From: Candidatus Cloacimonadota bacterium
GTDB lineage: Bacteria > Cloacimonadota > Cloacimonadia > Cloacimonadales > TCS61
Direction: 5' to 3'
NCBI GenBank assembly: GCA_021734245.1
Contig: JAIPJH010000004.1
Location: 9,645-73,644 of the forward strand
Length of the DNA stretch: 64,000 nucleotides
Part shown: positions 1 to 56,572 of the stretch, one piece after another
How the letters are laid out: each line of letters begins with the position of its first letter
Numbering within the stretch: position 1 is the stretch's first letter
Made by a program: the position numbers and the translations under genes
Notes under the pieces: model-generated
Databases searched by the model: none
What the model saw: only the letters and a program-made list of their open reading frames with translations
What the model was told of the DNA's origin: nothing

Positions 1-849
1 ACCAATGAACTGAAAATCAAATACGATCTGGAAACCAAGGAAGTGGAAAATGATCTTCTGAAAAAAGATCTTGAGATTATAAATATGCAGAAGAAGCATT
101 TGTTATATGTTCTGATTGCCGCCCTGATCATCATAACTCTGGTTATCATATTTTTGATTTCGAGCCGACGAATGAATAAAAAATTAAAACATTTGAACAT
201 AGCTCTCACGATTGCCAAACAGGAAGCTGAAAGAAACGAAAAGCAGATTTTGCTGATCAATAAAATGCTGCGGCATGACATCACCAATAATCTGGCGGTG
301 GTTGTTTCCGCTATCCGGCTCTACCAAAAAGAACAAGATAAAAGCTATCTGGATGAGGCAGCAAAGAAGTGCAATATCGGCATCGAACTGATCAAAAATC
401 TGCACAGTATGGAAAGAAAAAATATAGATTTCGAACATCGGCACCCCATTAATCTGGAAAAAATATTAGATAAGATAATTAACGATAATTCTGAGATCAA
501 CATTTCCTACAAAGGATCGGCTGTAGTGTTGGCAGATGACAGCATCGAATCTGTTTTCCGCAATCTGATCGAAAATGCTGTCAATCACGGCCAGGCAAAG
601 CAGATCGAGATTTCGATCCTGGAAGTGAATAATATTTGTGAGATTAGAGTTTTCAATGACGGCAGGCAGATAGATGAAGAAGTCATAGATAAAATATTTG
701 AAGAGAAATTCTCTCATGGCAAAAATGGCAATACCGGTCTGGGTTTGTATCTGGTAAAACAAAATGTACAACGTTACGGCGGTTCGATTTATGTGGAAAA
801 TACTCCGCCTTCCGGAGTTACTTTTATTCTGAGTCTGAAAAAAGCCTAA
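1..849 (+). CDS. Sensor histidine kinase, 5'-truncated by the window edge
   Basis: The frame is open from base 1 (TNELKIKYDLETKE...), so the tracked GTG at 43 is probably internal. TM segment LLYVLIAALIIITLVIIFLI. H-box-like MLRHDITNNL, N-box ENAVNHG, G-boxes NDGRQI and GNTGLGLYLV. The TAA stop overlaps the next ATG (TAATG). Confidence 0.8.
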   Translation, partial: TNELKIKYDLETKEVENDLLKKDLEIINMQKKHLLYVLIAALIIITLVIIFLISSRRMNKKLKHLNIALTIAKQEAERNEKQILLINKMLRHDITNNLAVVVSAIRLYQKEQDKSYLDEAAKKCNIGIELIKNLHSMERKNIDFEHRHPINLEKILDKIINDNSEINISYKGSAVVLADDSIESVFRNLIENAVNHGQAKQIEISILEVNNICEIRVFNDGRQIDEEVIDKIFEEKFSHGKNGNTGLGLYLVKQNVQRYGGSIYVENTPPSGVTFILSLKKA

Positions 850-1952
850 TGAGAATTTTTCTTTCCTTCCTGATATTAATTGCCTTTTCACATCAGCTGA
901 TTGGAAGTGTAAATTTTACCAATCTCAGCGGGTCTGATCTGGCTTTGGGTATCGGCTCACAACAAATTGCTTTGGGTGGTGCCGGAACACTTGTGGAAGA
1001 TGCTCCCGGTTCTATTTTCTGGAATGCGGCTGGAATCTCTCGAATTTCACATTCTCAGATTCAAATTGATTTTCAATCATTTACAGATTTTAAAAATGCA
1101 ATTTTAATTTGGAAACCGGATTTTTTCAAAGTATACTCTAAACAAGTTACGATTGGAATAAGTGCGATAAATCGTCTGAGATTTATAGGCAGCAGCGATC
1201 AGGTTTGGAGCGGTTATGCTGCCCATCTTTTGGACTTAACTATGATTGATCTAACTGATTTCACAGGTAAAATCAATTCCAATACTTACGATTATCGTTT
1301 TAACTTAGCCCTAAACCTGTCATCCAAATTAAATGCCGGTATTACTTTTGTTAGACTGGTCTGACGGACCGAAATTGAAAGAACCGGTGGTTCTGACCCG
1401 CATTATGAAGTAGGAATAGAATATAATACCTTTGATCTTGGCATTACTTATCAATTCAATAAAAATCTATCTGTCAGCCTGGTTAATAGAAATCTGCTTC
1501 ATTTTGGTGAAAACCGCTATAGTAATAAAGAAAATTCCACTCAAGAAACTGATGTAGAATTTTCTTTTCCCGATTATTTTACTTTTGGAATAGCATGGAA
1601 AAAAAATATTAATATTTATATGGATAATGAATTCATGATAGGAAAATATGGTGGAAAAACTTTGAAAGATATGAAAATCTGGTTTTTAAAAATAGGTGTG
1701 GAAAAAACTTATTTAAAGAAACTTGATTTGAGAGCTGGAATCACTGCTCCCATAATGGCAGAAACCACTACACTGGGAAATTTGTTAGATAAAATTCCAG
1801 ATCCAAAACTAAATCTATCATGCGGAATCGGCTACAAATGGAAAAGATTTACATTTGATTCAGCTTTATTCTTTAATCCTGGCCTTAGCTATGCAGAAAG
1901 AAAACCCGTTCCAGACTTATCTATTTCAATATCGTATCAATTATCAATTTAA
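849..1952 (+). CDS. FadL/PorV-like outer-membrane beta-barrel protein, paralog 1, with one in-frame TGA at 1362-1364 (candidate Sec or recoding site)
   Basis: Tracked ORFs 849..1364 and 1620..1952 share one frame, and 1365-1619 has no other stop. Signal peptide MRIFLSFLILIAF. IFWNAAGIS motif (NPAGL-like). OMP-style C-terminus SISISYQLSI. Collinear homology to the neighbouring paralog runs across the TGA. Confidence 0.6.
1380..1394 (+). promoter_or_regulatory. Hairpin AGAACC-GGT-GGTTCT, 15 nt downstream of the in-frame TGA (SECIS-like or recoding stimulator candidate)
   Basis: Perfect 6-bp stem. The loop starts 21 nt after the UGA and begins with GG. The geometry matches the hairpin in paralog 2, with a compensatory change. 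Confidence 0.4.
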
Positions 1953-1964
1953 AAGGATATAAAA

Positions 1965-3056
1965 TTGAAAAAAATATCAATTATCATTTTATTAATTTTA
2001 AACACACTTTTGTCTGCAGTAGATTTTGATTACCTAACTGGCTCTGACCTTTTTATTGGAGTTGGTGCTAAGCAGATCGGAATGGGTGGAACCGGATCTT
2101 TAATAGAAAATTCTGCTGCGTCCATTTACTGGAACCCTGCTGGCTTGAATAGTATTCGTGGAAACCAATTGGAAATTGATCTTGAAATTCCCTGGGATGC
2201 AAAAAATGCCATATTTATCTTCAAACCAGATTTTCTTAAACTAAATGGAAGACAGATCACAATTGGCTTAGCCAGAATTAACCGTTTAAAATTTAAAGGT
2301 TATAGTGAAGATGTCTGGGATGGATATTCCGAACATATTCTAAATCTTTCATTTAATTCAATCTCTAATTTTCGGGGAGGAATCGATACAGATACAAATG
2401 ATTATCGATTTGCTATGGCTTATGATATTTCCAAACGATTTGATTTTGGTTTCGCTCTTATTCGCTATGTATGACGAACCAAAGTGAACAGAATCGGAGA
2501 TTCTGCTGAAAAATATGAATTTGGTGTAGATTTTACAACCTTCGATTTAGGGTTGATTTACAAAATCAATCCCAAAACTTCTGCCAGTCTGGTTTATCGA
2601 AATATAGTAGATTTCTGGGGCAGACGAATACATGAAGACGAAGATTCCAACTACGAAAAGGCTGCGGATTTCAGTTCGCCAAATTTCCTAACTCTTGGAG
2701 TTTCCTATAAATACAAATCTTATAATTTATATTTGGATAGTGAACTTTTAAGTGGATATTATGGTTCAAATAAGAAATACATGAAATTCTGGTTTATCAG
2801 AGCTGGCGCAGAGAAATTTCTTACTAAATCCCTCATCGTTCGATCAGGAATTACCTATCCGGTAATGGCTGAAACTTCATCGCTGGGCAATATTCTTGAT
2901 ACAATTCCAAATCCCAAATTCAATGCTGCTGTTGGTTTAGGCTATCAAATTAAAAACTGGATTCTTGACACCACACTTTTTTTCAATCCCGGAATGAGCT
3001 ACGTAGAACATAAACCCGTTCCCGGTGGATCGATTAGTATAAGATACAACTACTAA
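1965..3056 (+). CDS. FadL/PorV-like outer-membrane beta-barrel protein, paralog 2, with one in-frame TGA at 2472-2474
   Basis: Tracked ORFs 1965..2474 and 2484..3056 share one frame. Signal peptide MKKISIIILLILNTLLSA. IYWNPAGLNS motif. C-terminus SISIRYNY. The TGA sits at the codon homologous to paralog 1 (..RLV-TGA-RTEIERTG vs ..RYV-TGA-RTKVNRIG). Confidence 0.6.
2489..2505 (+). promoter_or_regulatory. Hairpin CAGAATC-GGA-GATTCTG, 14 nt downstream of the in-frame TGA (SECIS-like or recoding stimulator candidate)
   Basis: Perfect 7-bp stem. The loop starts 21 nt after the UGA and begins with GG. The stem differs from paralog 1 by a paired C>T / G>A change that keeps base pairing. Confidence 0.4.
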
Positions 3057-3108
3057 AAAAGGGTCACAGTAAATACTGCAACCCTTTATAATATATTGTG
3101 GGTATACT

Positions 3109-5139
3109 TTATTTTACCTTCTTTTCTACCAATTTTTCGATCAACTTTTCATCAGGAATAAATGGCAATGTAATATGATCGGTGTCTTTACATCTTTCGT
3201 TATGTTCCATGCAGGTTGCGATAGAATTTTCATTTCTTGCCCATGCTCGGCGCGCCACGCCGCCCATCACGTCCCACCGGAATGAACGTTCCAAAATGTA
3301 ATCGACTCTTTCGCTGCCATCCAGAACCATACCGAAACCACCATTAATAACTTTGCCGATTCCCACTCCACCGCCGTTGTGTAGTGCAATCAAACTCATG
3401 CCGCGAGCCGCATTTCCGGCAAAACACTGCGTGGCCATATCTGCCATCACGTTACTGCCGTCCTTGATATTGGAAGTTTCACGGAAAGGACTGTCCGTGC
3501 CGCCGGTATCATGATGATCACGTCCCAGCATGATCGGTCCAACTTCTCCATTTTTCACCATTTCATTGAACTTGAGAGCAATGTTCATGCGTCCCATAGC
3601 ATCCTGATACAAAATTCGAGCCTGCGTTCCAACCACCAGTTTATTTTTGATCGCATCACGAACCCAGATGTAATTATCACGATCTTGATAACGTAATTCT
3701 TCCCGGCAATTTTGAATAACTTCAGCTGCCGCAGCATCGGTTTTGATAAGATCTTCTTCTTTTCCACTCAAACAAACCCAGCGGAAAGGTCCGTAACCGT
3801 AATCGAAAAGTTCCGGTCCCAGAATATCTTCCACATAACTGGGATAGATAAATCCATCATAGGTATTATCAGGATTTTTGGAAATTTCTTTCACTCCGGC
3901 ATCATAAACCGCTTTCATAAAGCTGTTGCCGTAATCGAAGAAATAAGTTCCATTTTCTACCAGCTTTTTGATCGCTTCGAAATGACGGCGCAAAGATTTA
4001 TCGACCAGTTGGCAGAACTTTTTTCTATCTTTGGAAAGCATTTCAGTTCGTTCTGCAAAACTTAAATCAACCGGACAATATCCACCTTCATAAGCTGCAT
4101 GACAGGAAGTCTGATCGCTGAGCAGATCGATGTGTTTCTGATTTTCTGCAGCGAATTCCAGCAGATCAACGATATTTCCATTATAAGCGATTGAAATTGA
4201 TTCCTCTTTCTGCAGATATTCTTCTGCTTGTTGGAAAGCTTCTTCAGCACTTTGAGTTACTAAACTTACCCAACCCTGATCGTGTCGCGTCTGGATGCGA
4301 GATTCATCAACTTCAGCAAAAATTCCTACGCCACCTGCAATTTCCACAGCTTTGGGTTGAGCACCGCTCATACCTCCCAAACCGGAGGACACAAATAATT
4401 TCCCTTTCAAATCGCCATCTTCAGGCACGCCAAGTTTCAGGCGCCCGGCAATTAAAATTGTGTTATAAGTTCCATGCACAATTCCCTGCGGTCCGATATA
4501 CATCCAGCCGCCGGCTGTCATCTGTCCGTAATTTGCCACGCCCAGGGCATTGGCACGATTAAAATCCTGCTGATTATCGAACATGCCGATCATTAATCCG
4601 TTTGTTAAAATAACTCTTGGTGCTTTGGGATGTGATTTGAATAATCCTAATGGGTGGCCACTTTCCAGAACAAGTGTATGTTCATGAGTGAGATTTTCCA
4701 GATATTTTTTGATAAGCCGATATTGCATCCAGTTCTGGCAGACCGAACCGGTTTCACCGTAAGTTACCAATTCGTATGGATAAAGAGCTGTAGCAAAATC
4801 TAAATTATTGTCGATCATCACCTGAAAAGCTTTTCCTTCTAAACATTTGCCTTTATATTCTTCTACAGGCTTTCCTTTCAAACATCCTTCCGGTCGATAA
4901 CGATAGCCATAGATATGACCATGTTCCATCAATTCATCCAGAAATTCCGGTGCTAAAGTTTCATGCAGCTCTTCTGGAATATAACGAAGGGCATTCTTAA
5001 GTGCTAAAGCAATTTCCTTTTTATTCAAGGGCATTTGACGTCGAGGAGCTCGACGGATTCCTTCCACAAATTTCGGATATTTTGGTAAATTAGAATCAAG
5101 TTTTATTGTCATAGCATTTGAAATATCAAGATTATTCAT
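3109..5139 (-). CDS. hutU: Urocanate hydratase (urocanase), long form
   Basis: 676 aa. The full-length sequence looks urocanase-like: RAPRRQMPLNKKE, GGWMYIGPQGIVHGT, GLGGMSGAQPKA, NGGGVGIG. Confidence 0.93.
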   Translation of the reverse strand: MNNLDISNAMTIKLDSNLPKYPKFVEGIRRAPRRQMPLNKKEIALALKNALRYIPEELHETLAPEFLDELMEHGHIYGYRYRPEGCLKGKPVEEYKGKCLEGKAFQVMIDNNLDFATALYPYELVTYGETGSVCQNWMQYRLIKKYLENLTHEHTLVLESGHPLGLFKSHPKAPRVILTNGLMIGMFDNQQDFNRANALGVANYGQMTAGGWMYIGPQGIVHGTYNTILIAGRLKLGVPEDGDLKGKLFVSSGLGGMSGAQPKAVEIAGGVGIFAEVDESRIQTRHDQGWVSLVTQSAEEAFQQAEEYLQKEESISIAYNGNIVDLLEFAAENQKHIDLLSDQTSCHAAYEGGYCPVDLSFAERTEMLSKDRKKFCQLVDKSLRRHFEAIKKLVENGTYFFDYGNSFMKAVYDAGVKEISKNPDNTYDGFIYPSYVEDILGPELFDYGYGPFRWVCLSGKEEDLIKTDAAAAEVIQNCREELRYQDRDNYIWVRDAIKNKLVVGTQARILYQDAMGRMNIALKFNEMVKNGEVGPIMLGRDHHDTGGTDSPFRETSNIKDGSNVMADMATQCFAGNAARGMSLIALHNGGGVGIGKVINGGFGMVLDGSERVDYILERSFRWDVMGGVARRAWARNENSIATCMEHNERCKDTDHITLPFIPDEKLIEKLVEKKVK

Positions 5140-5154
5140 TTAAAAAACTCCCAA

Positions 5155-5970
5155 TTATCTTATAATACCTGTCTCCACAAAATTGCCGGGAACATCATCA
5201 TGACCGGCCAACAGGCTATCAATCATTTCTGACAATCTCTCTACAACGTCAAATGAAATTGGCATCAAATTTTCGTTGCTATACTGCTTTCTTAAAACAA
5301 AAACTGCTTCAATAGGAAGTGAGCGAACATCTGGAGTGAGTTCTTTATCCAAGGTTTCAGTCACAATTATCGTTTTTACTTTTCTGAAAGTAGCTTTTGC
5401 CATATTTGCATAGTATTCTGAACGAATCAGATCATTCAGGTCGAGATTTGTAAAAGTGTGAAAAACAAGAAGCGGAAATTTCAGCTGATATTTATTGAAT
5501 CTTCTTTTCCCGGTAATACGAAACTGAAAATCTATATTTTGAATAAGAGATAAAAACATAGGCGAATCATCGATCTCAAAATTAGGATTTTTTTCCATCT
5601 CTCCAAAGCTTAAAGGATTGAAATTCATTCCCGTGGTAAATGATTGTCTTCCCCATTCGATACCCAGATTTTTTAAAATGCTTTTCTTTGATAGGAAAAT
5701 TGAAATAAAATCATCCAGATATAGTGAACTGAAAATTTCAGAATCAGGTTTAAATCCTTTCTTTGTCCCTTCCAGATATTTGAATTTTCTGCTATTTAAG
5801 TTCTTCAAAAACTTATTGAATTCTTGAACTATTAATTCATTGGTCAGTTTCTTCTCATCCAGGATTTTCTCAAATCCTTTCCATTTTAGTTTCAGCTCGG
5901 TCAGATACATTTTGTTAACCGGATTTTCTTCTTCCGGAATTAATCTATCCAATAGATCGGCATAAAACAT
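5155..5970 (-). CDS. Hypothetical protein, apparently co-transcribed with hutU
   Basis: Strong RBS (AGGAGGAATT-ATG). The 271-aa ORF ends 15 nt before the hutU start. No motif I can assign. Confidence 0.6.
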   Translation of the reverse strand: MFYADLLDRLIPEEENPVNKMYLTELKLKWKGFEKILDEKKLTNELIVQEFNKFLKNLNSRKFKYLEGTKKGFKPDSEIFSSLYLDDFISIFLSKKSILKNLGIEWGRQSFTTGMNFNPLSFGEMEKNPNFEIDDSPMFLSLIQNIDFQFRITGKRRFNKYQLKFPLLVFHTFTNLDLNDLIRSEYYANMAKATFRKVKTIIVTETLDKELTPDVRSLPIEAVFVLRKQYSNENLMPISFDVVERLSEMIDSLLAGHDDVPGNFVETGIIR

Positions 5971-6081
5971 AATTCCTCCTAAATTTCGGAAATTATTTTC
6001 TGATTTACCCTCTTCGTTTATAATGCGAAAAAATACTTTTACTCATTTATTGTCAAACAACTTTTAGATTTGATAATTTAT

Positions 6082-6110
6082 TTGACAAATCTTTTGTTGA
6101 ATTGAATTTT
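6082..6110 (+). promoter_or_regulatory. Promoter candidate TTGACA-N17-AATTTT
   Basis: TTGACA at 6082-6087, 17-nt spacer, AATTTT at 6105-6110, 17 nt before ATG 6127. One instance of a motif that recurs in this window. Confidence 0.45.
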
Positions 6111-6126
6111 CTTTGTGAGGTAGGAA

Positions 6127-7500
6127 ATGAAACTGATAAAAAATGCTGTAATTTCGAATGATAAGGAACTTGTTGATATTCTATATGAAGATAAAATAAT
6201 TCAAATCGGAAAAAATATTTCTCAATTCGAATTTGAAGAAATTATCGATCTGGAAGGAAAGATCCTGATTCCAGGCTGCATCGATGCTCATGTTCATTTC
6301 AACGATCCCGGCTACAACGAGCATGAAGATTTTATAACCGGCACAACTGCTGCAGCTTTTGGCGGTATCACCACGATCATCGATATGCCTTGCACTTCCA
6401 TTCCACCGGTTACGAATACTGAAAATCTTGAATCAAAACTATCTGTAATCAGGAATAAAGCCGTCATAGATTTTGCGCTCTGGGGTGGTATTCGCAGGAA
6501 TGATTTTCCAATTGAAATAGAAAAAATTCATCAATTATGGAAAGCGGGAATTGTCGGATTTAAAATTTACACAATTTCCGGAATGGACACTTTTGCAGCA
6601 CTTTCTTATGAAGATATAAAACAAATTTTTGAGAGATTCCCTGAAATGCTTTTTGCCTTCCATGCCGAGGATGCAGAAATTATCAAGAAAGCTGCCGATA
6701 AACTTTCTGAACTTGAAAAGATGAAGCCGGAAAATTATTTAAAATCACGACCTGCAGAAGCAGAAGTAAAAGCAGTTGGAAATATTTTGGAACTTGCCGA
6801 AAAAAATCATCTCCATTTCGTTCATATCAGTACCAAAAAAGCTGCTGAATCTATCTTGAAAGCAAAATCCAAATTGGATGTAAGCTGGGAAACATGTCCG
6901 CATTATCTGCAATTTACTGCTGCTGATTTTCCTCAGCTGAAAGGCAGATTAAAAACTGCTCCACCAGTTAAATGCGAAGATGATAAAAAATTTCTAAGAG
7001 CTGCCTTAAAAACAGGAAAAGTGGATTTTATTACAACAGATCACGCCGGATGTGATTGGAAAACAGAAAAAGATTTGGAAGATTTTTCCAAAGTTTATAA
7101 TGGAATTCCAGGAACACAATTAATGATTCCATATTTATTATCGGAATTTTATGTGAAGGAAAAAGTGCCACTATCCACTTTGATAAAGTTAACCTCGGAA
7201 AATGCTGCCAGAAGATACGGTTTATTTCCTCAAAAAGGAAGTTTACAAATTGGTTCTGACGCAGATTTTACGGTGATAGATCAAAATAGATCATTCTTGG
7301 TTAATGAAACAAAATTGAAATCGAAAGGAAAATATTCACCGTTTCATGGACAAACTTTTTCCTGTTCAATAGCAAAAACAATTGTCCGTGGAGAAACTGT
7401 TTTTGATCGAGAAAAAGGATTAATGGTCGATCCTGGTTTTGGAAATTGGGTAAAAAAAAAAGTAAATTATCTTATCGCGAAATCGGCAAAATTAGTTTGA
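6127..7500 (+). CDS. Cyclic amidohydrolase of the allantoinase/dihydroorotase family
   Basis: PGCIDAHVHFNDPG metal-binding motif, AAAFGGITTIIDMP, HFVHIST, ETCPHYL, TTDHAG. The 3' end overlaps convergent nrdG by 34 nt. Confidence 0.8.
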   Translation: MKLIKNAVISNDKELVDILYEDKIIQIGKNISQFEFEEIIDLEGKILIPGCIDAHVHFNDPGYNEHEDFITGTTAAAFGGITTIIDMPCTSIPPVTNTENLESKLSVIRNKAVIDFALWGGIRRNDFPIEIEKIHQLWKAGIVGFKIYTISGMDTFAALSYEDIKQIFERFPEMLFAFHAEDAEIIKKAADKLSELEKMKPENYLKSRPAEAEVKAVGNILELAEKNHLHFVHISTKKAAESILKAKSKLDVSWETCPHYLQFTAADFPQLKGRLKTAPPVKCEDDKKFLRAALKTGKVDFITTDHAGCDWKTEKDLEDFSKVYNGIPGTQLMIPYLLSEFYVKEKVPLSTLIKLTSENAARRYGLFPQKGSLQIGSDADFTVIDQNRSFLVNETKLKSKGKYSPFHGQTFSCSIAKTIVRGETVFDREKGLMVDPGFGNWVKKKVNYLIAKSAKLV

Positions 7501-8156
7501 AGTTCACGCGCCAGAAAGTTAAGATTTTCCTGTGAGAAAGAAGAAAATTTTACATAATCTTCATTCAGGGTTTTGGATGGTACAAACTTCTGAAGCAGAT
7601 ATCGTTTTGCTTTTCCCAGCATTTGCCCCATGATCAAAACATCATCTGTTGTTAGTAAATTTTGCACCAGTGTACTGCGAAATTCATAATCGATATTGGA
7701 ATTTTCAATAAGTTTAATGCTTCTTTTTATCGATTTTGAATCTACATTTGAACAAGTAACTTCCGCATATTTTGGCAGTGGTGCTTTTATATCCATCGCC
7801 AGATAATCCACTAATTTCAACCTGATGATTTTTTCTAAGATATCAGGATTTGTACCGTTGGTGTCAAGCTTAATGCTAAATCCCATAGATCGGCATTCTA
7901 ACAAGAAGTTTATCAAATCTGAATGCAAGGTCGGTTCACCGCCAGTTATACTCACAGCATCCAGTTTGCCTTTCCTATTTTCCAGGAAGTTAATAATTTC
8001 TTCTTCCGGTATTGGGTTGCAAAATTTATCAGCTTCAACAAGTTCGGGATTGTGACAATATGGACACCGGAAATTGCAGCCCTGAGTAAAAACAATTGCG
8101 CAGATTTTTCCGGGATAATCAATCAGCGAAAACTTCTGAAAACCACCGATTTTCAT
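7467..8156 (-). CDS. nrdG: Anaerobic ribonucleoside-triphosphate reductase activating protein (radical SAM)
   Basis: CNFRCPYCHNPE radical-SAM cluster motif. The start overlaps the nrdD stop (TAATG). Confidence 0.9.
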   Translation of the reverse strand: MKIGGFQKFSLIDYPGKICAIVFTQGCNFRCPYCHNPELVEADKFCNPIPEEEIINFLENRKGKLDAVSITGGEPTLHSDLINFLLECRSMGFSIKLDTNGTNPDILEKIIRLKLVDYLAMDIKAPLPKYAEVTCSNVDSKSIKRSIKLIENSNIDYEFRSTLVQNLLTTDDVLIMGQMLGKAKRYLLQKFVPSKTLNEDYVKFSSFSQENLNFLARELQTNFADFAIR

Positions 8157-10252
8157 TATTCTACCATCTTGAATGTCTTCCTGATATCGAACTCCGCTTT
8201 TTTACCATCGTTCCATTGCTGCACCGGTCGCAAATAACCGACAACACGAGAATATACTTCACAAGCCGTATTGCAATGCGGACATTTGTAATGTTCACCA
8301 TCGATGTAGCCATGAGTTTTGCAAACGCTGAAAGTTGGTGAAAATGTGAAATAAGGCAATTTGTAATTACTACAGATTTTATTCACCAGATTTTTTAAAC
8401 TATCAATGTTTCCAATTCTTTCTCCGGCAAAAAGATGCAATACTGTTCCGCCGGTATATTTTGTTTGAATCTCATCTTGAAGATCCAGAGTTTCAAAAAT
8501 ATCATCGGTATAATTTACCGGGAGTTGAGTTGAATTTGTGTAAAATGGTTCTGCCTGATGACTGTTATAATCTTTTTCGTTGGCAACCACGATATCTGGA
8601 AATCTCATTTTATCTATTTTTGCCAGACGATAAGTTGTACCTTCTGCTGGAGTTGCTTCCAGATTATAATTATTTCCGGTTTCTTCCTGATAATCTATCA
8701 ATTTATCTCGCATGAAATCCATGATCTCAATTGCAAAACCATGACCTTCTTCCATGCCAATATTGGCTCCAATCAAATTCAGGCTGGCTTCATTCATGCC
8801 AATAAGCCCAATCGTGGAAAAGTGATTTTTCCAATATTGACCGAACCTGCCTTTGATATCTCTAAGATAATATTTTGTATATGGATAAAGCGAATTATCG
8901 GTTAGTTTTTCCAGTACTTTACGCTTGATTTCCAAACTATTTTTGGCTTTTTCCATCAATTCATCAAGCCGCTGCAAAAAATCATATTTATTTTTGGAAA
9001 GATAAGCAATCCTGGGAAGATTTATGGTAACAACTCCGATAGAACCTGTAAGTGGATTTGCACCAAACAATCCTCCACCGCGAGCTTCCAATTTTCTTGT
9101 ATCCAAACGAAGACGACAACACATACTACGTGCATCATCAGGACTCATATCTGAATTCACAAAATTAGAAAAATACGGAATTCCATATTTGGCAGTAGCT
9201 TGCCACAGGTAATCCAAAGTAGGATTATCCCAATCAAAATCGGTAGTAATATTATAAGTAGGAATTGGAAATGTAAAAACTCGTCCTTTCGCATCACCTT
9301 CACTCATCACTTCCAGGAAAGCTTTGTTGATAACATTCATTTCCTCCTGAAAATCAGAATAAGTTAATTCCAGATGTTCGCCGCCCAGAATTACAGGATG
9401 ATCAGCATAAGTAGATGGAATAACCAGATCCATTGTAATGTTTGTAAAAGGTGTTTGGAAACCGACCCGAGTGGGAACGTTCACATTAAAAATAAATTCC
9501 TGCAAAGCCTGCTTTACTTCTTTGTAGGAAAGTTTATCGAAACGAATAAAAGGAGCCAGCAGAGTATCGAAATTTGAAAATGCCTGCGCACCGGCAGCTT
9601 CACCCTGCAGTGTGTAGAAGAAATTTACGATCTGGCCCAAAGCGCTGCGGAAATGTTTAGCAGGACCACTTTCAATTTTGCCGGAAGCTCCTTTAAAACC
9701 GATCATCAGAAGATCTTTGAGATCCCAGCCGACACAATAAACCGAGATCAATCCCAAATCGTGAATATGAAGTTCACCATTGATGTGAAGTTCTTTAACT
9801 TCTGGTGGATAAATTTTATTCAACCAGTAAATTTTGCTGATTTCCGAAGCAATATAATTATTTAAACCCTGTAGAGAATAAGCCATATTACTATTTTCTT
9901 TTACCTGCCAATCCAATCTCTCCAGGTATTTGTCGATCAGAGAAATTTCGGCATTGGAAACGATTTCGCGAATTTTGGCATGTTGATCTCGATAGATAAT
10001 GTAAGCTTTTGCGGATTTTTTGAAAGGAGAGGAAAGCAGAACTTCTTCTACAATATCCTGAATTTCTTCCACGCAGGGAACTTGCTTCTCAATCATTTGC
10101 TGAGCAAGATTGATAACTTGCAGTGAAAGTTTCTTGGCTATCGATTCATCAAATTCGTCCGTAGCTTCACCAGCTTTCAGGATGGCATGAGTGATTTTAT
10201 CAAACTCAAATTTTACTATCTGATTGTCGCGTTTTTTTATAAACTTAAACAT
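8156..10252 (-). CDS. nrdD: Anaerobic (class III) ribonucleoside-triphosphate reductase
   Basis: N-terminal ATP-cone (KRDNQIVKFEFDKITHAILKA). C-terminal Zn ribbon CPHCN plus glycyl-radical motif SRVVGYLRP. I prefer ATG 10252 (GGAGAG 7 nt upstream) over the tracked TTG at 10267. Confidence 0.93.
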   Translation of the reverse strand: MFKFIKKRDNQIVKFEFDKITHAILKAGEATDEFDESIAKKLSLQVINLAQQMIEKQVPCVEEIQDIVEEVLLSSPFKKSAKAYIIYRDQHAKIREIVSNAEISLIDKYLERLDWQVKENSNMAYSLQGLNNYIASEISKIYWLNKIYPPEVKELHINGELHIHDLGLISVYCVGWDLKDLLMIGFKGASGKIESGPAKHFRSALGQIVNFFYTLQGEAAGAQAFSNFDTLLAPFIRFDKLSYKEVKQALQEFIFNVNVPTRVGFQTPFTNITMDLVIPSTYADHPVILGGEHLELTYSDFQEEMNVINKAFLEVMSEGDAKGRVFTFPIPTYNITTDFDWDNPTLDYLWQATAKYGIPYFSNFVNSDMSPDDARSMCCRLRLDTRKLEARGGGLFGANPLTGSIGVVTINLPRIAYLSKNKYDFLQRLDELMEKAKNSLEIKRKVLEKLTDNSLYPYTKYYLRDIKGRFGQYWKNHFSTIGLIGMNEASLNLIGANIGMEEGHGFAIEIMDFMRDKLIDYQEETGNNYNLEATPAEGTTYRLAKIDKMRFPDIVVANEKDYNSHQAEPFYTNSTQLPVNYTDDIFETLDLQDEIQTKYTGGTVLHLFAGERIGNIDSLKNLVNKICSNYKLPYFTFSPTFSVCKTHGYIDGEHYKCPHCNTACEVYSRVVGYLRPVQQWNDGKKAEFDIRKTFKMVE

Positions 10253-10445
10253 ATCCCAACTCTCCAACTCTGTTTTAAATCGACAACTCTTTATTTTTCA
10301 TAAACTTACAAAAATGAACCCAGAAAACGCATTTTTGGACTCACTATATCTACTTGACTTAAAGATAAGGACTTAATGTTCTTGTCAAGAGCATTATAAA
10401 TTCATATTTTATTAAACTGCTCGAATCAAGCTTTATAAAGGTGTT

Positions 10446-10477
10446 TAAGCAGCGAATAAAAAATTATTCTGCTTAAC
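10446..10477 (-). terminator. Interrupted 13-bp hairpin downstream of nrdJ (possible terminator)
   Basis: TTAAGCA(gc)GAATAA-AAAA-TTATTC-TGCTTAA, about 50 nt after the nrdJ stop. It is followed only by a weak T tract on the minus strand. Confidence 0.35.
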
Positions 10478-10526
10478 TATACAGTAAAATCCCTAGATTC
10501 TTCGTCAAACAAAGCTGGTCTATTTT

Positions 10527-12785
10527 TTAGCATTTCGACCAACCACAGGAATTACACTTCAAACATCCTTCCGAATGTTCGATTGAACTACCACAATCTG
10601 GACAGGTTGCCATAGAACTTGATGAGATTTTTTTTGAAGATTCATCTTTGGCTTTTTTATTTAACTCCTCGATGTTTCTCAAGCTGTCTTGATCCAGTTG
10701 CAAAAACTTATCCAACGACTTTGCTACGCTGTCTGCACAGGAAGTTACCATACTGCCATTGCTCCACATGGGAGATGGACAGCGAATTCCTTTTAACTGC
10801 CTGGAAATGGAACTCACTTTCACATTAGATCGAAGACAAAGAGAAGTAAGACGGGCAATCGCTTCCAATTGAGCCGAGGCACATCCACCAACTTTTCCCA
10901 TTTGAGTAAAGATCTCACATGCACCCTTTTCATCGGAATTGATAGTTACGTACATATGTCCGCAACCGGTTTCGATCTTTTGTGTCGTTCCAATGGTGAT
11001 ATCCGGTCTTTCTCTGGGAGCAATACGATGACCGTTAGAAGTTTTTTGTTCTTTTATTTCCTTACCTTTGTTCAAAACCTGATTTTGACGACTACCGTCA
11101 CGATAAACAGTAACACCTTTGCAGCCAAGTTCATAAGAAAGTTCATAAGCCATCTGAATATCTTCCTTGCTGGCATTTTGGTTGAAATTAATCGTTTTGG
11201 AAACTGCATTATCGGTATATTTCTGAAAAGCTGCCTGCATCTGGATATGCCATTTTGGAGTTATATCATGACTTGTAACAAAAATCTTTTTCAGTTCTTC
11301 CGGAATTTCATCGATATGAGAGATACTGCCTGTTTCAGAAACTTTTTCCATCAACTCTTTGGAATAAATTCCTGCCTCCTTTACTGCTTTTTCAAAATGT
11401 GGATTGATGTATAACAATTTCTCTCCATCCATCACATTTTTTACATAAACCAGCGAAAACTGTGGTTCGATTCCACCGGAAGTATTCAGGATCATACTGA
11501 TGGTTCCGGTTGGTGCAATTGTGGTTGTGGTTGCATTCCTGATACCATTCTTTTTTATGTCTTTTTTCAGATTTTCCCAATCCATTTTTTCCGATTCTCT
11601 CGGCAGATTTCCTTCATCATAGACGCTACTCGTAAAATTGGGGAATGCTCCATCGATCTTTGCCAGTTTCATAGATTTAAGTTTGGAATGATAATCGATG
11701 AATTCCATGATTTCGGCTGCCAAATGCAAAGCTTGCTGACTATTGTAAGGAATTTTTAATCGGAAGAGAAGATCTGCCCAACCCATGATGCCAAGACCAA
11801 TTTTGCGATTGGCTTTTACCATCTCATCAATTTCGGGAAGTGGGAATTTGGAACGATTAATCACATCATCCAAAAACTCAACACTTTCATAAACAACCTG
11901 CTTAAGAAGTTCCCAATCAAATTTTTGCTTTTCTACCATTACAGAAAGATTTATCGATCCCAGATTGCAGGCTTCATTTGGTAGAAGCGGTTGTTCACCG
12001 CACGGATTTGTAGATTCAATCTTTCCGATATGCGGAGTTGGATTGTATTTATTAATTCTATCAATGAAAACTATTCCCGGTTCACCATTTTGATGCGCCA
12101 TTTTTATGATGAGCTTGAAAACATCACGCGCAGCAAGTTCTTTGACAATTTTGCCGGTATGAGGAGCAATGAGTTCGTATTTTTCGTCTTCATAAACTGC
12201 CTTCATGAACTTGTCTGTAATTCCTACAGAAATATTAAAATTAGTAAGTTTTGTAATATCTTCCTTGCAGGTTATAAATTCCAGGATTTCGGGATGATCC
12301 ACACTGAGAATTGCCATGTTGGCTCCACGACGAGTACCACCTTGTTTCACAGCATCTGTAGCTGCGTTAAAAACATTCAAAAAAGAGATCGGACCGCTGG
12401 AAACACCGTTGGTACTGCGGACCCTGGCATTTGCCTGCCGCAATTTACTGAAACTGAAACCTGTTCCGCCACCGCTTTTATGAATGAGAGCTGCATTTTT
12501 TACTGTTTCAAAAATACTATCCATGCTGTCTTCCAAAGGTAAAACAAAACAGGCAGAAAGCTGTTGAAGATCGTTTCCGGCATTCATCAATGTTGGTGAA
12601 TTTGGCAGGAAGCAACCAGAATCGAGTAATGCATAATATTTTTTTCTTTTATCTTCGTTGCCACCGCTGATATCAGTCGCAACGCGGTTTATCATTTGAT
12701 CCCAGTTTTCAATTGGTTCATCATTTTTATCATGTTTAAAATAACGTTTTTTGAGCACAGTAAGTGCATTTTCTGTTAAAATCAT
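10527..12785 (-). CDS. nrdJ: Class II (adenosylcobalamin-dependent) ribonucleotide reductase
   Basis: 752 aa. TLMNAG, NPCGEQPL, TIAPTGT and VSKTINF motifs. C-terminal Cys-rich tail CPDCGSSIEHSEGCLKCNSCGWSKC. Confidence 0.93.
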   Translation of the reverse strand: MILTENALTVLKKRYFKHDKNDEPIENWDQMINRVATDISGGNEDKRKKYYALLDSGCFLPNSPTLMNAGNDLQQLSACFVLPLEDSMDSIFETVKNAALIHKSGGGTGFSFSKLRQANARVRSTNGVSSGPISFLNVFNAATDAVKQGGTRRGANMAILSVDHPEILEFITCKEDITKLTNFNISVGITDKFMKAVYEDEKYELIAPHTGKIVKELAARDVFKLIIKMAHQNGEPGIVFIDRINKYNPTPHIGKIESTNPCGEQPLLPNEACNLGSINLSVMVEKQKFDWELLKQVVYESVEFLDDVINRSKFPLPEIDEMVKANRKIGLGIMGWADLLFRLKIPYNSQQALHLAAEIMEFIDYHSKLKSMKLAKIDGAFPNFTSSVYDEGNLPRESEKMDWENLKKDIKKNGIRNATTTTIAPTGTISMILNTSGGIEPQFSLVYVKNVMDGEKLLYINPHFEKAVKEAGIYSKELMEKVSETGSISHIDEIPEELKKIFVTSHDITPKWHIQMQAAFQKYTDNAVSKTINFNQNASKEDIQMAYELSYELGCKGVTVYRDGSRQNQVLNKGKEIKEQKTSNGHRIAPRERPDITIGTTQKIETGCGHMYVTINSDEKGACEIFTQMGKVGGCASAQLEAIARLTSLCLRSNVKVSSISRQLKGIRCPSPMWSNGSMVTSCADSVAKSLDKFLQLDQDSLRNIEELNKKAKDESSKKISSSSMATCPDCGSSIEHSEGCLKCNSCGWSKC

Positions 12786-33595: not shown

Positions 33596-34852
33596 ATGGA
33601 CATCAGAAAATTTTTAGAGCAATTTGATGATTCGGAACTGAAAAATATTGGCGTATTAAATACAAAAAGAAATCTATTAAATTCTAAAAGTGTTGAAAGT
33701 TTAATACAATTAATGAAACAAAGTAATATAGATAAACTAGAAGGACCAGAAGATTGGTTTTTAGATATAAATTATAATTTTTGTAATCCCAAATCAAATC
33801 TAAAACAAACTGGAAATTTAAAACAAAGTCAAACAAGACTTGGAGTTGTTTTTGATTTCCAAAATAACATTTTGAATCCTCATTATAGATCTTTTGATAA
33901 AAACCAAAACAATGAAAATTCCAGTCAAAATTCTCCCCAAGAAATTTACAAACAAAAAATCATATTAGATACTACTGTTTTTGCTAATGAAGATATTTCA
34001 AAACCTGAAAATAGAATCAATTTATCACTTTTCAGTTTATTCCTAATTGATGATTTCAGATCCTGGTTTTTAGAACAGTTTGATCTTCCACAAGATTCTG
34101 TTATTTTCCCTTCGACTAATTTAAAAGGTGGAATCAGACCTGATTTTGCAGTAAATAACAAAGAAGATAAACCAATAGCTTATATAGAAGTTGAGATCGG
34201 AAGAGAAGATATTGGTCAATTACAAAATTTTAGAAGTATGCTAAATGTCCCGGTCTTTTCAGTTTGTGGAAAAAAAGAACATGAAGGACATCTGAGTCTT
34301 TTAGAAATTTATGATAAATTAAACGAAGTAAAAGAAAAAATTAAATCCAAACAATTCAATAAGAATTTTGCTGTTTATGAAACCTTGATTTATGAAAACG
34401 TTCTTTCATATGGACGTGAGAGATATAAATCAACTACAATATCAGATGAAATGAGAAATTCTTTTCTTATTCAAAATCTGATGGATCATTTGGAGATTCA
34501 CGAAGATGTGGGAAGAACTATGAGACCTGGTGAATTTCTGCTTGAAACAAAGAAAGAATTCGGATTCTCTCTTAGAATTTATTCACGAGAATCAAAAATT
34601 AGGAATAGCTTATCCATTATGGCACGATCCGGTGGTAGACCAAGAATCATATTCCCTTCTAAAGAAAAATTAGAGAAATATTTACCTTCGTATAAACAGC
34701 CTGCAATTAACGAATTATGTAATTTTCTAAAAAGGTTTGGTTATCATATTGATACATTACCGGAAAGATCACAAGCAAGAATCGATATAAACCTCGTTGA
34801 GGGAAATATTGATAAATTTATTGCGATTTTGGAAAAATTGGGTGAAATATGA
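33596..34852 (+). CDS. Hypothetical protein with a PD-(D/E)xK-like nuclease core
   Basis: GGAGG RBS. 418 aa. The candidate core GGIRPDFAVNNKEDKPIAYIEVEIGRED has the spacing typical of restriction-endonuclease-fold proteins. The rest is unassignable. Confidence 0.55.
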   Translation: MDIRKFLEQFDDSELKNIGVLNTKRNLLNSKSVESLIQLMKQSNIDKLEGPEDWFLDINYNFCNPKSNLKQTGNLKQSQTRLGVVFDFQNNILNPHYRSFDKNQNNENSSQNSPQEIYKQKIILDTTVFANEDISKPENRINLSLFSLFLIDDFRSWFLEQFDLPQDSVIFPSTNLKGGIRPDFAVNNKEDKPIAYIEVEIGREDIGQLQNFRSMLNVPVFSVCGKKEHEGHLSLLEIYDKLNEVKEKIKSKQFNKNFAVYETLIYENVLSYGRERYKSTTISDEMRNSFLIQNLMDHLEIHEDVGRTMRPGEFLLETKKEFGFSLRIYSRESKIRNSLSIMARSGGRPRIIFPSKEKLEKYLPSYKQPAINELCNFLKRFGYHIDTLPERSQARIDINLVEGNIDKFIAILEKLGEI

Positions 34853-34968
34853 AAATAGATAGAAACGATCCAATTAACAAAATAATATTTCCTGATAAGA
34901 AATCAACAACTGGTTGTATGACATTAATTGTTTGTATTTTATTATGTTTTGAGAGGTTGCATGGATAG
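34849..34968 (+). CDS. 39-aa micro-ORF with a hydrophobic Cys-rich tail, translationally coupled on both sides
   Basis: MKIDRNDPINKIIFPDKKSTTGCMTLIVCILLCFERLHG. Its ATG overlaps the upstream TGA (ATATGA) and its TAG overlaps the downstream ATG (ATGGATAG). It is below the track length cutoff. Confidence 0.3.
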   Translation: MKIDRNDPINKIIFPDKKSTTGCMTLIVCILLCFERLHG

Positions 34969-37378
34969 AAAAAAACAAATTCTAAATGCTATAATCAACA
35001 AGAATTGCAATGAGTTAGTATTTCAAGAAAGTTATGAAGACATTTTAGTAGAAATAACTGATGATTTACTTAAAAATAATGATTTTGTTCCTTGCAGTGT
35101 ATTAAACAGAAGTTTATTTTTATATACATCAGGTTCTGATTTTATACCTTTGGACGAAGAACAAGCCAAAAGAAACAGAATCATTAAACCAATCAAAACA
35201 AAGGTTGAAGCAAGGATTTCAGAAAAATTAATATCCCTTATCAAAACAAATGAAGTTGATTTATTCAATGATTTTTTTCGGGTATTATACAAAAATGAGG
35301 AAGACTATAAAGATTTATTATTCACCTATGACGATAATATTTTTATAGAACTAATTTCTTACATCATTTCAAATGATGATCTTGAATTATTGTTTGATAT
35401 TTTTAAATATTTAAACGACAATTTTAATGTTGATTATAATGAACCAATTGAAAAGATATTCATATACTTCATGGAAAACCGTGATAATAGATTCTATCCT
35501 CAGTTTAAAAAAGAATTAGTGATTTGGTTCAATGAATTTGTTTTTGACGGAACCCCATTAGACATATTCTATGAGCGAAATTTCTTGGATCTTATTGTTA
35601 AATATGATGTTGAGTTAACTGCTGATATTTTAGAGCAATCTCTTCATATTACTAATGATCAAACTGAGGATATGAATATAATTGATATGTTATTAGAATA
35701 TTCGAATTTTTTTGACACTTCAATTGAAAATACCAAAAGAAAAAATATATATGAAGCTCTTAATAAATTTGCTTCCAAATATCCGAGTAGCGAATCAATG
35801 TCTTTATTATTATTTTTTTCAATTATTCAAAATGTAAATGAACCAATTAAAATCTTTAAAAAAATAAAAACTAAAAATCTTAAAAATGAAGTAATCAATT
35901 TAATTTGTAAGAAATATCTGAATCCCAGATTAATTAGATTAGATTTAAAGAATAGAAAAAAAATTGTGGATTTTCTATTAGATCAAAATTTAGATTTCGA
36001 TTTTGAACTAAAAATACTAGAAGCATTTATATCTAACCAAACCACGTTAACTTTACAAAAGGATATATTCAATTTATCAGATTATATTAGAAAATTATAT
36101 CATGCTATGATAGAAGGAATAAACAGAAACAGTGTTGAAAAATCTATAAAAAATGACCTAAAATCGCTTTTGCTTATTATAATTAGATTGTACGATAATA
36201 ATTTTGATATTGAAAATCATAAATTATTTACAAAAATATGTAATTATTTATTTAATTTTACCCCACAAAGATACTATTCTATGTATAATTATTTTGATTC
36301 TATCGATTTATCATATAGTGAATTTGCAAAAACGGGTATAACATCTGGTCCTAGTTTTCATGATCTCAAGTATGAAAAATATGATACATCAATAAAAAAA
36401 GATTATTTTACTTTTAAAATATTTCATAAAATATTCTTCAAATTGAATAAAATATCAGATAACAATAACGAACTTAAAAAATATGTTGATTTGATACATA
36501 AATTGTATAGTTCATTATTTGTCTATACTAGAAATGTGATTTTTATTAATTCAGCTGTCGAAAAAAAAGATGAAATTACTAAAGCACGGGTTGAAGAACG
36601 CAATCGTATTTTGGCAAATCTATCTCATACGGTCAAAAACATGATCGGTACGATTATAGATCCTTTGGAAAATATGAAAAGCCAAAATAAACTTCAACCA
36701 GTTGCAATAGATAATGCAATAAGAGGAGCCAATCTGGTTCGCGGTTTAGTAAATGCAATGAACCTTAGTTTCAAAGGTTCAATAGAAGACTTCCAATACG
36801 ACATAAAAAATGCAGAATACAATAATTCTACTTCTCTAAAACAAATGTTTATAGAGTCCCTTAAATATTCCATTAGCTCGATGTTCGACGGTAAATATTT
36901 TGAAAAATTTATGAGAAATTATTTTCCCAACAAAGCTGAATTTCTGGTAGCAAAAACCAAATGGAACGATGTTTCTCAAACAACAGAAATTCAAAAAATA
37001 ATGGATTTTATGAACACATATATGCTGAAAGCAGAAATTGATCTGGATTCGGCACAGGATTTTGTAATAGGTAATGATAAGGGATCTTCTCTTAAATTCC
37101 TAATTATGATCCAGGAAATGGTTTTCAATGCTGTTAAATATTCTTCCTTCGTTCCCCAGGATGAACGTTTTATCAAAATTGAGTTTTCGGCTGATAATGA
37201 ATATGTTTCCATTCAAGTAAGCAATAAATTCCAACCTAAAACTAAAGTGAAATCTAGTGGTCTTGGACATGAGATAATTAACAATTTTTCTAAATTGCTG
37301 CAAACAAAACCTGATATTAGAACTGAAAATGAAATATATTCGGTAGAAGTGAAGTTCCAAAATTTGTGGGAGGTATAA
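34961..37378 (+). CDS. Atypical histidine-kinase-like protein: ~560-aa uncharacterised helical N-terminal region plus DHp-like and HATPase_c-like C-terminus
   Basis: ATG 34961 with a GAGAGG RBS. H-box-like RILANLSHTVKNMIG, N-box-like QEMVFNAVKYSS, G-box-like SSGLGHEIINNF. No TM segment or signal peptide. Codon usage is very AT-rich. Confidence 0.7.
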   Translation: MDRKKQILNAIINKNCNELVFQESYEDILVEITDDLLKNNDFVPCSVLNRSLFLYTSGSDFIPLDEEQAKRNRIIKPIKTKVEARISEKLISLIKTNEVDLFNDFFRVLYKNEEDYKDLLFTYDDNIFIELISYIISNDDLELLFDIFKYLNDNFNVDYNEPIEKIFIYFMENRDNRFYPQFKKELVIWFNEFVFDGTPLDIFYERNFLDLIVKYDVELTADILEQSLHITNDQTEDMNIIDMLLEYSNFFDTSIENTKRKNIYEALNKFASKYPSSESMSLLLFFSIIQNVNEPIKIFKKIKTKNLKNEVINLICKKYLNPRLIRLDLKNRKKIVDFLLDQNLDFDFELKILEAFISNQTTLTLQKDIFNLSDYIRKLYHAMIEGINRNSVEKSIKNDLKSLLLIIIRLYDNNFDIENHKLFTKICNYLFNFTPQRYYSMYNYFDSIDLSYSEFAKTGITSGPSFHDLKYEKYDTSIKKDYFTFKIFHKIFFKLNKISDNNNELKKYVDLIHKLYSSLFVYTRNVIFINSAVEKKDEITKARVEERNRILANLSHTVKNMIGTIIDPLENMKSQNKLQPVAIDNAIRGANLVRGLVNAMNLSFKGSIEDFQYDIKNAEYNNSTSLKQMFIESLKYSISSMFDGKYFEKFMRNYFPNKAEFLVAKTKWNDVSQTTEIQKIMDFMNTYMLKAEIDLDSAQDFVIGNDKGSSLKFLIMIQEMVFNAVKYSSFVPQDERFIKIEFSADNEYVSIQVSNKFQPKTKVKSSGLGHEIINNFSKLLQTKPDIRTENEIYSVEVKFQNLWEV

Positions 37379-37379
37379 G

Positions 37380-38426
37380 TTGAAAATACTTTATGTGGAA
37401 GATGAACTGACAAAGAATGTTCCCAAAATTATCAGGTTATTCGAGAAATATCTTGGACCTAAAAGAGTAAAGCAGTTAGAAAAACTAGAAAATGATGAGA
37501 GTGGTTACGGTGCTGAACCTCAGGAAATTAAGAGAATAGTTGAATCGTGTGGAGTTGTAGATATTGAATATTGCTTTACTGATAGTTTAAAGAAAATAGT
37601 AGAATTCCAAAATGAATATACAATTTTCATAATTGATAGAAACTTATCTGAAGTAGAGTATGAGTTGGAAGATATACAAAAAATCGGAACAAGCTACAAA
37701 AATGAGTTTTATGATAAATTCTTTGAACGTGAGGGAGATTATTTTCTTGAACTACTTATCTCAGCTAAATTTGATGTAATTAATAATTTTTACTTTCTTA
37801 CAGCTAATTCCCGCGATGATCTGCGAAATGCAGATAGATTAAAAGAGCATTTTGATTTTGGATTATTTAAAGCAAGTAACATCATTGATAAATCTGATAA
37901 TCTGGAAATGCATAAACTAAAGATGCGAATTGAAAATGATGAAAAACTTCAGGTTTTGAAAGATAATATTAGATATGTGCGTATATTGGAAAAAATCGAT
38001 TCTGACGTTTCGGAAAACTTCCTTGACCTTTTAACTCATAAAGATGATTCAAATCAAAATACCATAAGAAAAAATCTTACTACAATAAGAAATATCCTTT
38101 CCGATAATATTCTTCCGGAAATTGCCAGGTTGAAAAATGCTCCTGATTTTTGCTGGAATCCCAAGAATAAGAATCAGATTGTTATGAGAGGAGTTATAAG
38201 TTGGATATGTAATTTCGATAAAGATACGAGAATAAATAATTTTCAATTTAATTCTAATGCTATTATAAAGAATTTTCTATATGATATTCAGGAGATAGCA
38301 AGTGATTATGGTGATCATAAAAATTACAAAAAAAAAGAAAAAACACTTGCTACTAGTGATACCGTAAATTCACTAATATATGCTTTAAAAGATATTATCG
38401 TGTGGTATGATAAGATTCTGGAGTAA
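37380..38426 (+). CDS. Receiver (REC)-like domain protein with an uncharacterised C-terminal effector-like domain
   Basis: TTG start 1 nt after the upstream stop, with a GGGAGG RBS 6 nt upstream. KILYVEDE, TIFIIDRNL (candidate phospho-Asp) and YFLTAN. The C-terminal ~180 aa (TIRKNLTTIRNILSDN ... IQEIASDYGDH ... LIYALKDIIVWY) has no DNA-binding motif that I recognise. Confidence 0.65.
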   Translation: MKILYVEDELTKNVPKIIRLFEKYLGPKRVKQLEKLENDESGYGAEPQEIKRIVESCGVVDIEYCFTDSLKKIVEFQNEYTIFIIDRNLSEVEYELEDIQKIGTSYKNEFYDKFFEREGDYFLELLISAKFDVINNFYFLTANSRDDLRNADRLKEHFDFGLFKASNIIDKSDNLEMHKLKMRIENDEKLQVLKDNIRYVRILEKIDSDVSENFLDLLTHKDDSNQNTIRKNLTTIRNILSDNILPEIARLKNAPDFCWNPKNKNQIVMRGVISWICNFDKDTRINNFQFNSNAIIKNFLYDIQEIASDYGDHKNYKKKEKTLATSDTVNSLIYALKDIIVWYDKILE

Positions 38427-56463: not shown

Positions 56464-56572
56464 TTTTAACTCTCCTTCCTTAATACTTTTTTTTAATTTT
56501 GAACGCAAAAATGAAACCAAACGCTAAATTATTTATCATAATATTAAGCATATTTTGAACTGTTAAAAATAA

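Follow-up and report, generated by a model that had tools for sequence, protein, structure and literature searches.

Putative selenocysteine codons in two tandem outer-membrane barrel genes of a Cloacimonadota bacterium

We analysed a stretch of 64,000 nucleotides from a Candidatus Cloacimonadota bacterium (assembly GCA_021734245.1, contig JAIPJH010000004.1, positions 9,645 to 73,644), here called the window. Two tandem genes at its beginning, gene 1 and gene 2, are each interrupted by a single in-frame TGA. Our analysis indicates that both UGA codons are very probably decoded as selenocysteine (Sec), in a manner that depends on SelB and on a Sec insertion sequence (SECIS). Both genes would then encode full-length, 14-stranded outer-membrane β-barrels of about 365 residues with a FadL/PorV fold. 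An original prediction, made from the letters of the window, had proposed that the UGA is decoded and had named Sec as its first option. Three findings now speak for that option: full-length homologs carry cysteine (Cys) at the position of the TGA, diverged split genes keep the codon as TGA, and a covarying hairpin downstream of the codon is missing from the Cys forms.

A conserved TGA in an invariant Cys column

Translation of the plus strand gave two frames with one internal stop each (Table 1). As predicted, the genes are tandem paralogs and their stops fall on homologous codons. The products share 47% identity over 346 residues with two gap positions and align collinearly over the stop (BLASTP). 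Identity between them is 44.7% before the TGA and 47.9% after it, and the values for gene 1 and its ortholog at locus L001 are 55.3% and 54.9%. Since identity is equal on either side of the TGA, selection acts on the downstream halves as it does on the upstream ones.

A word-indexed homolog search returned just two matches, and the family became visible only through an index-free profile search over 1.84 billion representatives, which yielded 112 proteins at an E value of 1e-10 or better. These matches fall into three classes: full-length proteins of 354-391 residues, N-terminal fragments of 168-195 residues that end at profile positions 164-172, and C-terminal fragments that start at profile positions 177-196. 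This is the output expected from gene callers for genes interrupted by an in-frame stop. One of the word-indexed matches, P0001, has a Cys exactly at the position of the window TGA, followed by the invariant R-T. We then built an alignment (A5) of 28 sequences, comprising 21 full-length proteins and seven reconstructed split genes. In the critical column, Cys occupies 21 of the 21 full-length sequences and TGA seven of the seven split genes, so the search for an aligned Cys that had been suggested with the prediction came out in its favour. Every other Cys form that we inspected, including those at L078 and L079, also carries Cys in this column.

Many Cys forms read C-x-T-x-x-C-G, others have the second Cys 13-14 residues downstream, and some possess the first Cys only. 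The second Cys thus shifts its position or is missing among full-length proteins, and only the first is invariant. Where Cys forms had source names, these were Maritimibacter and other Pseudomonadota, and each such protein carried the annotation 'hypothetical protein'. A scan of metagenomes with a four-sequence alignment added two Sec forms and two Cys forms. A scan of genome contigs was dominated by the generic WNPAG motif of the barrel hatch and gave one true ortholog (L001) plus 60 distant PorV-like relatives, whose scores against the family profile are only about 38-73 bits.

DNA was recovered for 13 split genes, namely gene 1, gene 2, L001, L076, L077, L064-L069, L072 and L075. The homologous codon is TGA in all 13 and TAA or TAG in none, and past the TGA the frame runs on, where the contig allows, for about 190-200 codons before it ends normally. 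This conservation spans considerable divergence, with products about 31-57% identical to that of gene 1. L001 is a single-copy ortholog from another Cloacimonadales metagenome-assembled genome (MAG), with 56% identity and likewise adjoining hutU. L076 and L077 are two further close relatives, and the remaining eight are more distant genes from metagenomes.

The surroundings of the Sec codon differ between these genes. The original prediction had noted that no Cys lies near the TGA. That is correct for the window genes, whose motif is V/T/D-U-R-T (U, Sec) with no Cys nearby, but not for the homologs: L064, L065, L067 and L075 carry U-x-T-x-x-C, which mirrors the C-x-T-x-x-C of Cys forms, L066 carries C-U, and L068, L069 and L072 carry C-x-x-x-U. 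By lineage, the Cys nearest to Sec is found at +5, -1 or -4 or is absent (window type); in the Cys forms it is found at +5 or +13/14 or is absent. As a separate observation, the Sec-form homolog of L064 (U-K-T-T-M-C, positions 850-1000) meets a TAA 44 codons past its TGA, which marks it as frameshifted, misassembled or decaying. Its contig also encodes two rubredoxins, a flavodoxin-like protein and a low-molecular-weight phosphatase/ArsC-like protein (5291-6834).

A covarying hairpin downstream of the UGA and rival explanations

All 13 TGA genes can form a hairpin of 6-7 base pairs at nucleotides 18-34, counted from the U of the UGA. Its loop is centred on nucleotides 25-27, and G25 is invariant (13/13). 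Besides the window hairpins (Table 1), examples are CGGAACC-GGC-GGUUCCG in L067, CCGGGC-GGACA-GUCCGG in L065 and CGGAGC-AGGUA-GCUCCG in L075. Helix pairs were counted on the ungapped, codon-aligned alignment of the TGA genes, with 500 shuffles as control. We found 91% of the pair cells paired versus 72% in shuffles, and compensatory changes on both sides in five of the seven helix pairs. The covariation score of the helix was 0.549 versus 0.206 in shuffles. None of the 500 shuffles reached the observed pairing, and none reached the observed covariation score. When the 3' partners were slid by one to three columns, merely 18-45% of the cells paired. Pair 19-33 occurs as C-G, A-U and G-C, and its 3' base falls on the third position of a Ser codon, where changes are synonymous. 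The identical helix was predicted independently by RNAalifold. In contrast, four Cys-form homologs, which have TGC at the critical codon, form only one or two of the seven pairs there, and their local folds reach -1.6 to -4.3 kcal/mol versus -6.1 to -11.4 kcal/mol for the Sec forms (-8.9 to -11.4 kcal/mol in the higher-GC homologs). The SECIS-type element that had been proposed as a check on the prediction is thus present downstream of both window TGAs.

The published model of the bacterial SECIS (bSECIS) has a loop of 3-9 nucleotides with a G at one of its first two positions, a stem of 4-16 base pairs, 16-37 nucleotides from the UGA to the loop, and a free energy of -7.5 kcal/mol or lower (PMC13188914). 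With a loop of 3-5 nucleotides opening with GGN, a stem of 6-7 base pairs and a UGA-loop spacing of 21 nucleotides, the family hairpin has this geometry. A comparable hairpin with G25 is rare by chance, arising at 0.34% of the window positions, and each of the eight other TGAs of the window that have one lies out of frame or on the non-coding strand. A generic terminator scan called both hairpins (1380-1394 and 2487-2507) terminator-like on the minus strand, an example of how elements of this kind can be misread.

Bacterial genes with a bSECIS inside the reading frame, of which Escherichia coli fdhF is the prototype, offer the closest comparison for the recoding. They share with the window genes the in-frame UGA, the coding-region hairpin directly downstream of it, Cys homologs, a loop that opens with GG or GU and a UGA-loop distance within 16-37 nucleotides. 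The fdhF loop is GGUC, with its loop G at nucleotide 23. The family differs in its short stem of 6-7 base pairs, a mostly minimal loop of three nucleotides and a loop G at nucleotide 25, and in its host protein, which is predicted to be an exported β-barrel rather than a cytoplasmic or periplasmic oxidoreductase. We infer that the single UGA of each gene would be recoded by the standard bacterial mechanism, in which the hairpin recruits SelB carrying Sec-tRNASec to the ribosome and Sec takes the place of the family-invariant Cys.

Several observations weigh against this reading. Taken alone, the window hairpins have little stability (-6.1 and -6.7 kcal/mol locally), and the 60-nucleotide folds of the two genes, -7.8 and -9.7 kcal/mol, have unremarkable z values of 0.5 and -1.5, so that by the published energy criterion these AT-rich genes are marginal. 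Rfam gave no relevant match, neither for the region at E values up to 10 nor for the whole window at gathering scores. The window genes are without a partner Cys, which is less typical of redox selenoproteins. Finally, we found none of selA, selB, selC and selD among the genes of the window or of the fetched loci, and a search for tRNASec in the window and 48 loci found none. A Cloacimonetes-type tRNASec has been described at phylum level (PMC5330540); beyond this statement we found no literature on selenoproteins of Cloacimonadota.

Among the rival explanations, decoding of the UGA independently of Sec fares best, although we consider it highly improbable. A leaky UGA might be read by a near-cognate Trp or Cys tRNA, or the stop might deliberately yield a short product of 170 residues together with a rarer long isoform; readthrough and deliberate isoforms had also been listed beside Sec in the original prediction. 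The missing sel genes among the window genes would fit this, and some truncated product is to be expected in any case, given that Sec insertion competes with termination in bacteria. However, neither version explains why full-length homologs carry Cys in exactly this column, why the codon is conserved as TGA, or why the TGA is followed at a fixed distance by a covarying hairpin that has an invariant G in its loop and is missing from the TGC forms. In addition, the short product would comprise the hatch and five of the 14 strands of the model described below, which is not a closed barrel.

Still less probable are split genes or decaying pseudogenes, whose halves would be separate or no longer functional. 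Gene callers and NCBI do treat the halves as separate hypothetical proteins, and the L064 homolog with its early stop appears disrupted. Against this stand the same single TGA in 13 genes, of which the complete ones have no other stops or frameshifts, the equal conservation on both sides, and the fact that the stop is always TGA. Nor is there a consistent restart codon: the starts picked by gene callers lie from four to more than 80 codons past the TGA.

A reassigned UGA (to Trp or Gly) does occur in some low-GC uncultured lineages. In the window, whose GC content is 36%, the 37 other open reading frames (ORFs) of at least 190 residues end in TAA (27), TGA (six) or TAG (four). Those ending in TGA include both examples cited in the original prediction, with stops at 34850-34852 and 46578-46580, and an allantoinase-type gene whose profile match stops at the gene end. 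When TAA and TAG alone were taken as stops, no other long ORF of the window contained a mid-gene TGA. Because TGA ends six of the 37 ORFs and lies inside no other long one, a reassigned genetic code, which the prediction had called unlikely, is excluded. The window TGAs are not assembly errors either, because the same sequences recur in independent assemblies and MAGs: the TGA-split genes are present in two independent Logan assemblies, and the exact C-terminal fragment of gene 2 is found under four NCBI protein accessions, named 'hypothetical protein', from Candidatus Cloacimonetes/Cloacimonadota MAGs. Reassignment or sequencing error accordingly deserves next to no weight as an explanation.

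Predicted barrel fold and a possible role of Sec

With a 41-row family alignment, AlphaFold2 modelled the gene 1 product at a predicted local distance difference test score (pLDDT) of 92.8 and a predicted template modelling score (pTM) of 0.88. The model consists of a signal-peptide helix, an N-terminal hatch (approximately residues 20-68) with a WN[PA]AG motif, and 14 strands. The Cys form P0004 was also modelled with 14 strands (pLDDT 91.3). A Foldseek comparison of the gene 1 model with the Protein Data Bank (PDB) placed FadL homologs, TbuX, TodX and FadL on top (E values of 5e-10 to 1e-7, template modelling (TM) scores of 0.53-0.61), and PorV in the type IX secretion system (T9SS) complex 8gl6_F reached a TM score of 0.56. 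The original prediction had assigned outer-membrane protein-type termini to both products. Gene 2 indeed has an aromatic end (...RYNY), but gene 1, which ends in ...SYQLSI, has not.

Matches to Pfam and NCBIfam profiles all fell below threshold. FadL, TodX and TbuX (PF03349, Toluene_X/FadL) share the 14-strand barrel and the N-terminal hatch of about 45 residues and are the best structural matches, and the hatch motif, WNPAG in gene 2 and WNAAG in gene 1, resembles the conserved NPA of FadL. The window genes nevertheless score below the Pfam threshold: gene 2 reaches 19.6 bits versus 29.7 over 28 hatch residues, and gene 1 has no match. At the site of the family Sec, FadL proteins are not known to have a conserved Cys or Sec. 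The best NCBIfam match, which covers most of the protein (40 bits, residues 31-342), is PorV/PorQ (NF033709), with scores of 38.5-43.8 bits for gene 1 and five Cys homologs, far under the cut-off of 90. In favour of a PorV-like relation, the window comes from a T9SS-bearing group and contains PorU-like genes. In contrast, no T9SS genes adjoin the window genes, and Maritimibacter and other Pseudomonadota, a phylum in which a T9SS is, to our knowledge, not known, possess Cys forms.

As possible signs of an association with the T9SS, two PorU-like genes lie 46-53 kb away and a cargo gene with a T9SS tail adjoins the L072/L073 homolog, with no conserved adjacency. The PorU-like genes (48939-52664 and 52690-56520, minus strand) are tandem giant paralogs of 1241 and 1276 residues, about 46 kb from the selenoprotein genes. 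They have sub-threshold matches to the N-terminal region of the T9SS sortases PorU/PorU2 and to a choice-of-anchor D domain, and they may bear on a PorV-like role of the selenoprotein barrels. The cargo gene encodes FlgD_ig and Por_Secre_tail (T9SS sorting) domains and follows the C-x-x-x-U Sec homolog convergently (L072, 1756-3282; L073, 1546-3108; both on the minus strand).

In the gene 1 model, the alternation of turns and loops sets strand 5 (residues 161-178) between a periplasmic turn (157-160) and the extracellular loop L3 (179-184). Since Sec172 is the twelfth residue of the strand as it rises from the periplasmic turn, some 11 residues above that turn, it is predicted to lie at the extracellular end of the strand, near the rim of the barrel. 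Sec172 shares its strand face with N162, the invariant G164 and T166, whereas L161, A163, I165 and F167 are on the opposite face. We infer from this shared face that the Sec side chain points into the lumen above the hatch. In the P0004 model this strand (169-185) is unbroken, and Cys180 corresponds to Sec172 in both place and parity. We considered the strand break at 171-173 of the gene 1 model as a FadL-like kink and rejected it, given the continuous strand of the Cys form; the break is probably an artefact of the unknown residue X that stands for Sec in the model. A structural disulfide between Cys180 and Cys193 of P0004 was not adopted either, as the strand register of the model sets them about four positions apart.

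What the Sec does can be suggested more tentatively. The most likely role, to which we give somewhat less than even chances, is that of a redox or ligand-binding site lining the channel, in which Sec would act as a redox-active or nucleophilic chalcogen that touches channel passengers. One invariant Cys/Sec with a variable or absent second Cys fits nucleophilic or redox cysteines, not structural disulfides. Other members have a second Cys near this site (+5, +13/14, -1 or -4), and the selenol of the window genes would stand alone. A functional role is suggested solely by patterns of conservation, and the fetched loci showed no operon context in common; both count against this part of our reading. 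A catalytic or covalently acting channel, in which the lone lumen-facing selenol at the rim captures or transforms a passing substrate, seems unlikely. Candidate substrates would be chalcogen or soft-metal species, compounds with a disulfide, or secreted cargo. If this reading were true, the barrel would work as an enzyme or a redox gate and not as a passive pore, and the variable second Cys of the relatives would be a resolving residue.

The remark that no Sec-containing β-barrel of the outer membrane was known has been overtaken. A 2026 inventory of 119 prokaryotic selenoprotein families holds two predicted outer-membrane barrels, the MtrB/PioB-type GSU2204 and a TonB-dependent receptor (FCYXU). 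The latter resembles the window family as a predicted outer-membrane β-barrel with TGA and Cys homologs, but it has 22 strands and a CxxU motif and belongs to Desulfobacterota, whereas the window family has 14 strands and a [CU]-x-[TS] motif, with no NCBIfam match to the receptor model. GSU2204 (NF041027) is likewise a predicted outer-membrane selenoprotein; it is the barrel of a porin-cytochrome conduit with a CXXCH motif, and we saw no relation to the window family in sequence or fold. A FadL/PorV-type family is not in the table of the 2026 inventory, none is mentioned in the paper on BSepDB, and release 20 of NCBIfam has no model for one. By the usual criteria of the field, a Sec/Cys pair, TGA homologs and a bSECIS, the family is to be regarded as a new predicted selenoprotein family, the recoding itself being ordinary.

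The family would enlarge the known selenoproteome by a third outer-membrane barrel, one that differs in structure from the other two. At present each of its genes enters the databases as two truncated hypothetical proteins, from Cloacimonadota and other MAGs, an annotation that recognition of the family would correct. The invariant Cys/Sec also marks a probable active site, and hence a residue to mutate, in a widespread and uncharacterised FadL/PorV-like family, and it raises the question of what job a selenol has on the surface of an anaerobic cell that ferments amino acids.

Surroundings of the two genes and other observations

The positions of the two genes and of the elements around them are given in Table 1.

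Table 1. Features of the selenoprotein gene region, in window coordinates.
Feature	Positions	Strand	Remarks
Gene 1	849..1952	+	367 codons; predicted outer-membrane barrel selenoprotein; predicted Sec at codon 172; signal peptide approximately codons 1-19
Gene 2	1965..3056	+	363-codon paralog of gene 1; TTG start; predicted Sec at codon 170
Predicted Sec codon (UGA), gene 1	1362..1364	+	Cys/TGA column of the family alignment
Predicted Sec codon (UGA), gene 2	2472..2474	+	Cys/TGA column of the family alignment
SECIS-type hairpin, gene 1	1380..1394	+	AGAACC-GGU-GGUUCU; nucleotides 19-33 counted from the U of the UGA; codes for R-T-G-G-S
SECIS-type hairpin, gene 2	2489..2505	+	CAGAAUC-GGA-GAUUCUG; nucleotides 18-34 counted from the U of the UGA
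Terminator-like hairpin 3' of gene 2	3058..3087	+	followed by UUUAUAAUAU; between gene 2 and the convergent hutU
Sensor histidine kinase	43..849	+	C-terminal part within the window; upstream of gene 1

Upstream, the histidine kinase gene runs into gene 1, its TAA and the following ATG being merged in TAATG (847-851). Because of this overlap the kinase is probably co-transcribed with gene 1. In the longer contig L062 the kinase measures 722 residues and comprises TPR and HATPase_c domains. The TTG start of gene 2 lies seven nucleotides 3' of the GGA in AAGGA (1953-1957). Directly after the TAA of gene 2 follows the terminator-like hairpin with its U-rich tract (-12.9 kcal/mol, z = -4.2, none of 200 shuffles as stable), and no such combination was seen after either TGA. 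This arrangement points to transcription through the full length of both genes.

The neighbours of the family genes differ from locus to locus, so that their context yields no functional clue. L001 is flanked by a gene for an upstream protein of 1298 residues, by an ORF of 207 residues on the opposite strand and by hutU. At other loci we found the T9SS-tail cargo gene, rubredoxin and flavodoxin genes, or genes for a methyl-accepting chemotaxis protein (MCP) and a PilZ protein. The sole recurring neighbour is hutU, in close relatives only.

Elsewhere in the window, ORFs of 418, 816, 348, 386, 462 and 271 residues gave no family match, three of them against Pfam and NCBIfam and three against NCBIfam only; such ORFs lie at 33596-38426 and 60599-61759 on the plus strand and at 62543-63931 and 5155-5970 on the minus strand. 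The hutU gene next to gene 2 (3109-5139, minus strand) encodes a long urocanase of 676 residues. It adjoins an amidohydrolase gene (6127-7500, plus strand) whose product scores above the cut-off for allantoinase (TIGR03178) and below that for the hydantoin-5-propionate amidohydrolase ErtD of ergothioneine utilisation. The region 7467-12785 (minus strand) encodes a class III ribonucleotide reductase, which is anaerobic, and the activase of this enzyme (nrdD, nrdG), directly followed by the B12-dependent class II enzyme (nrdJ).

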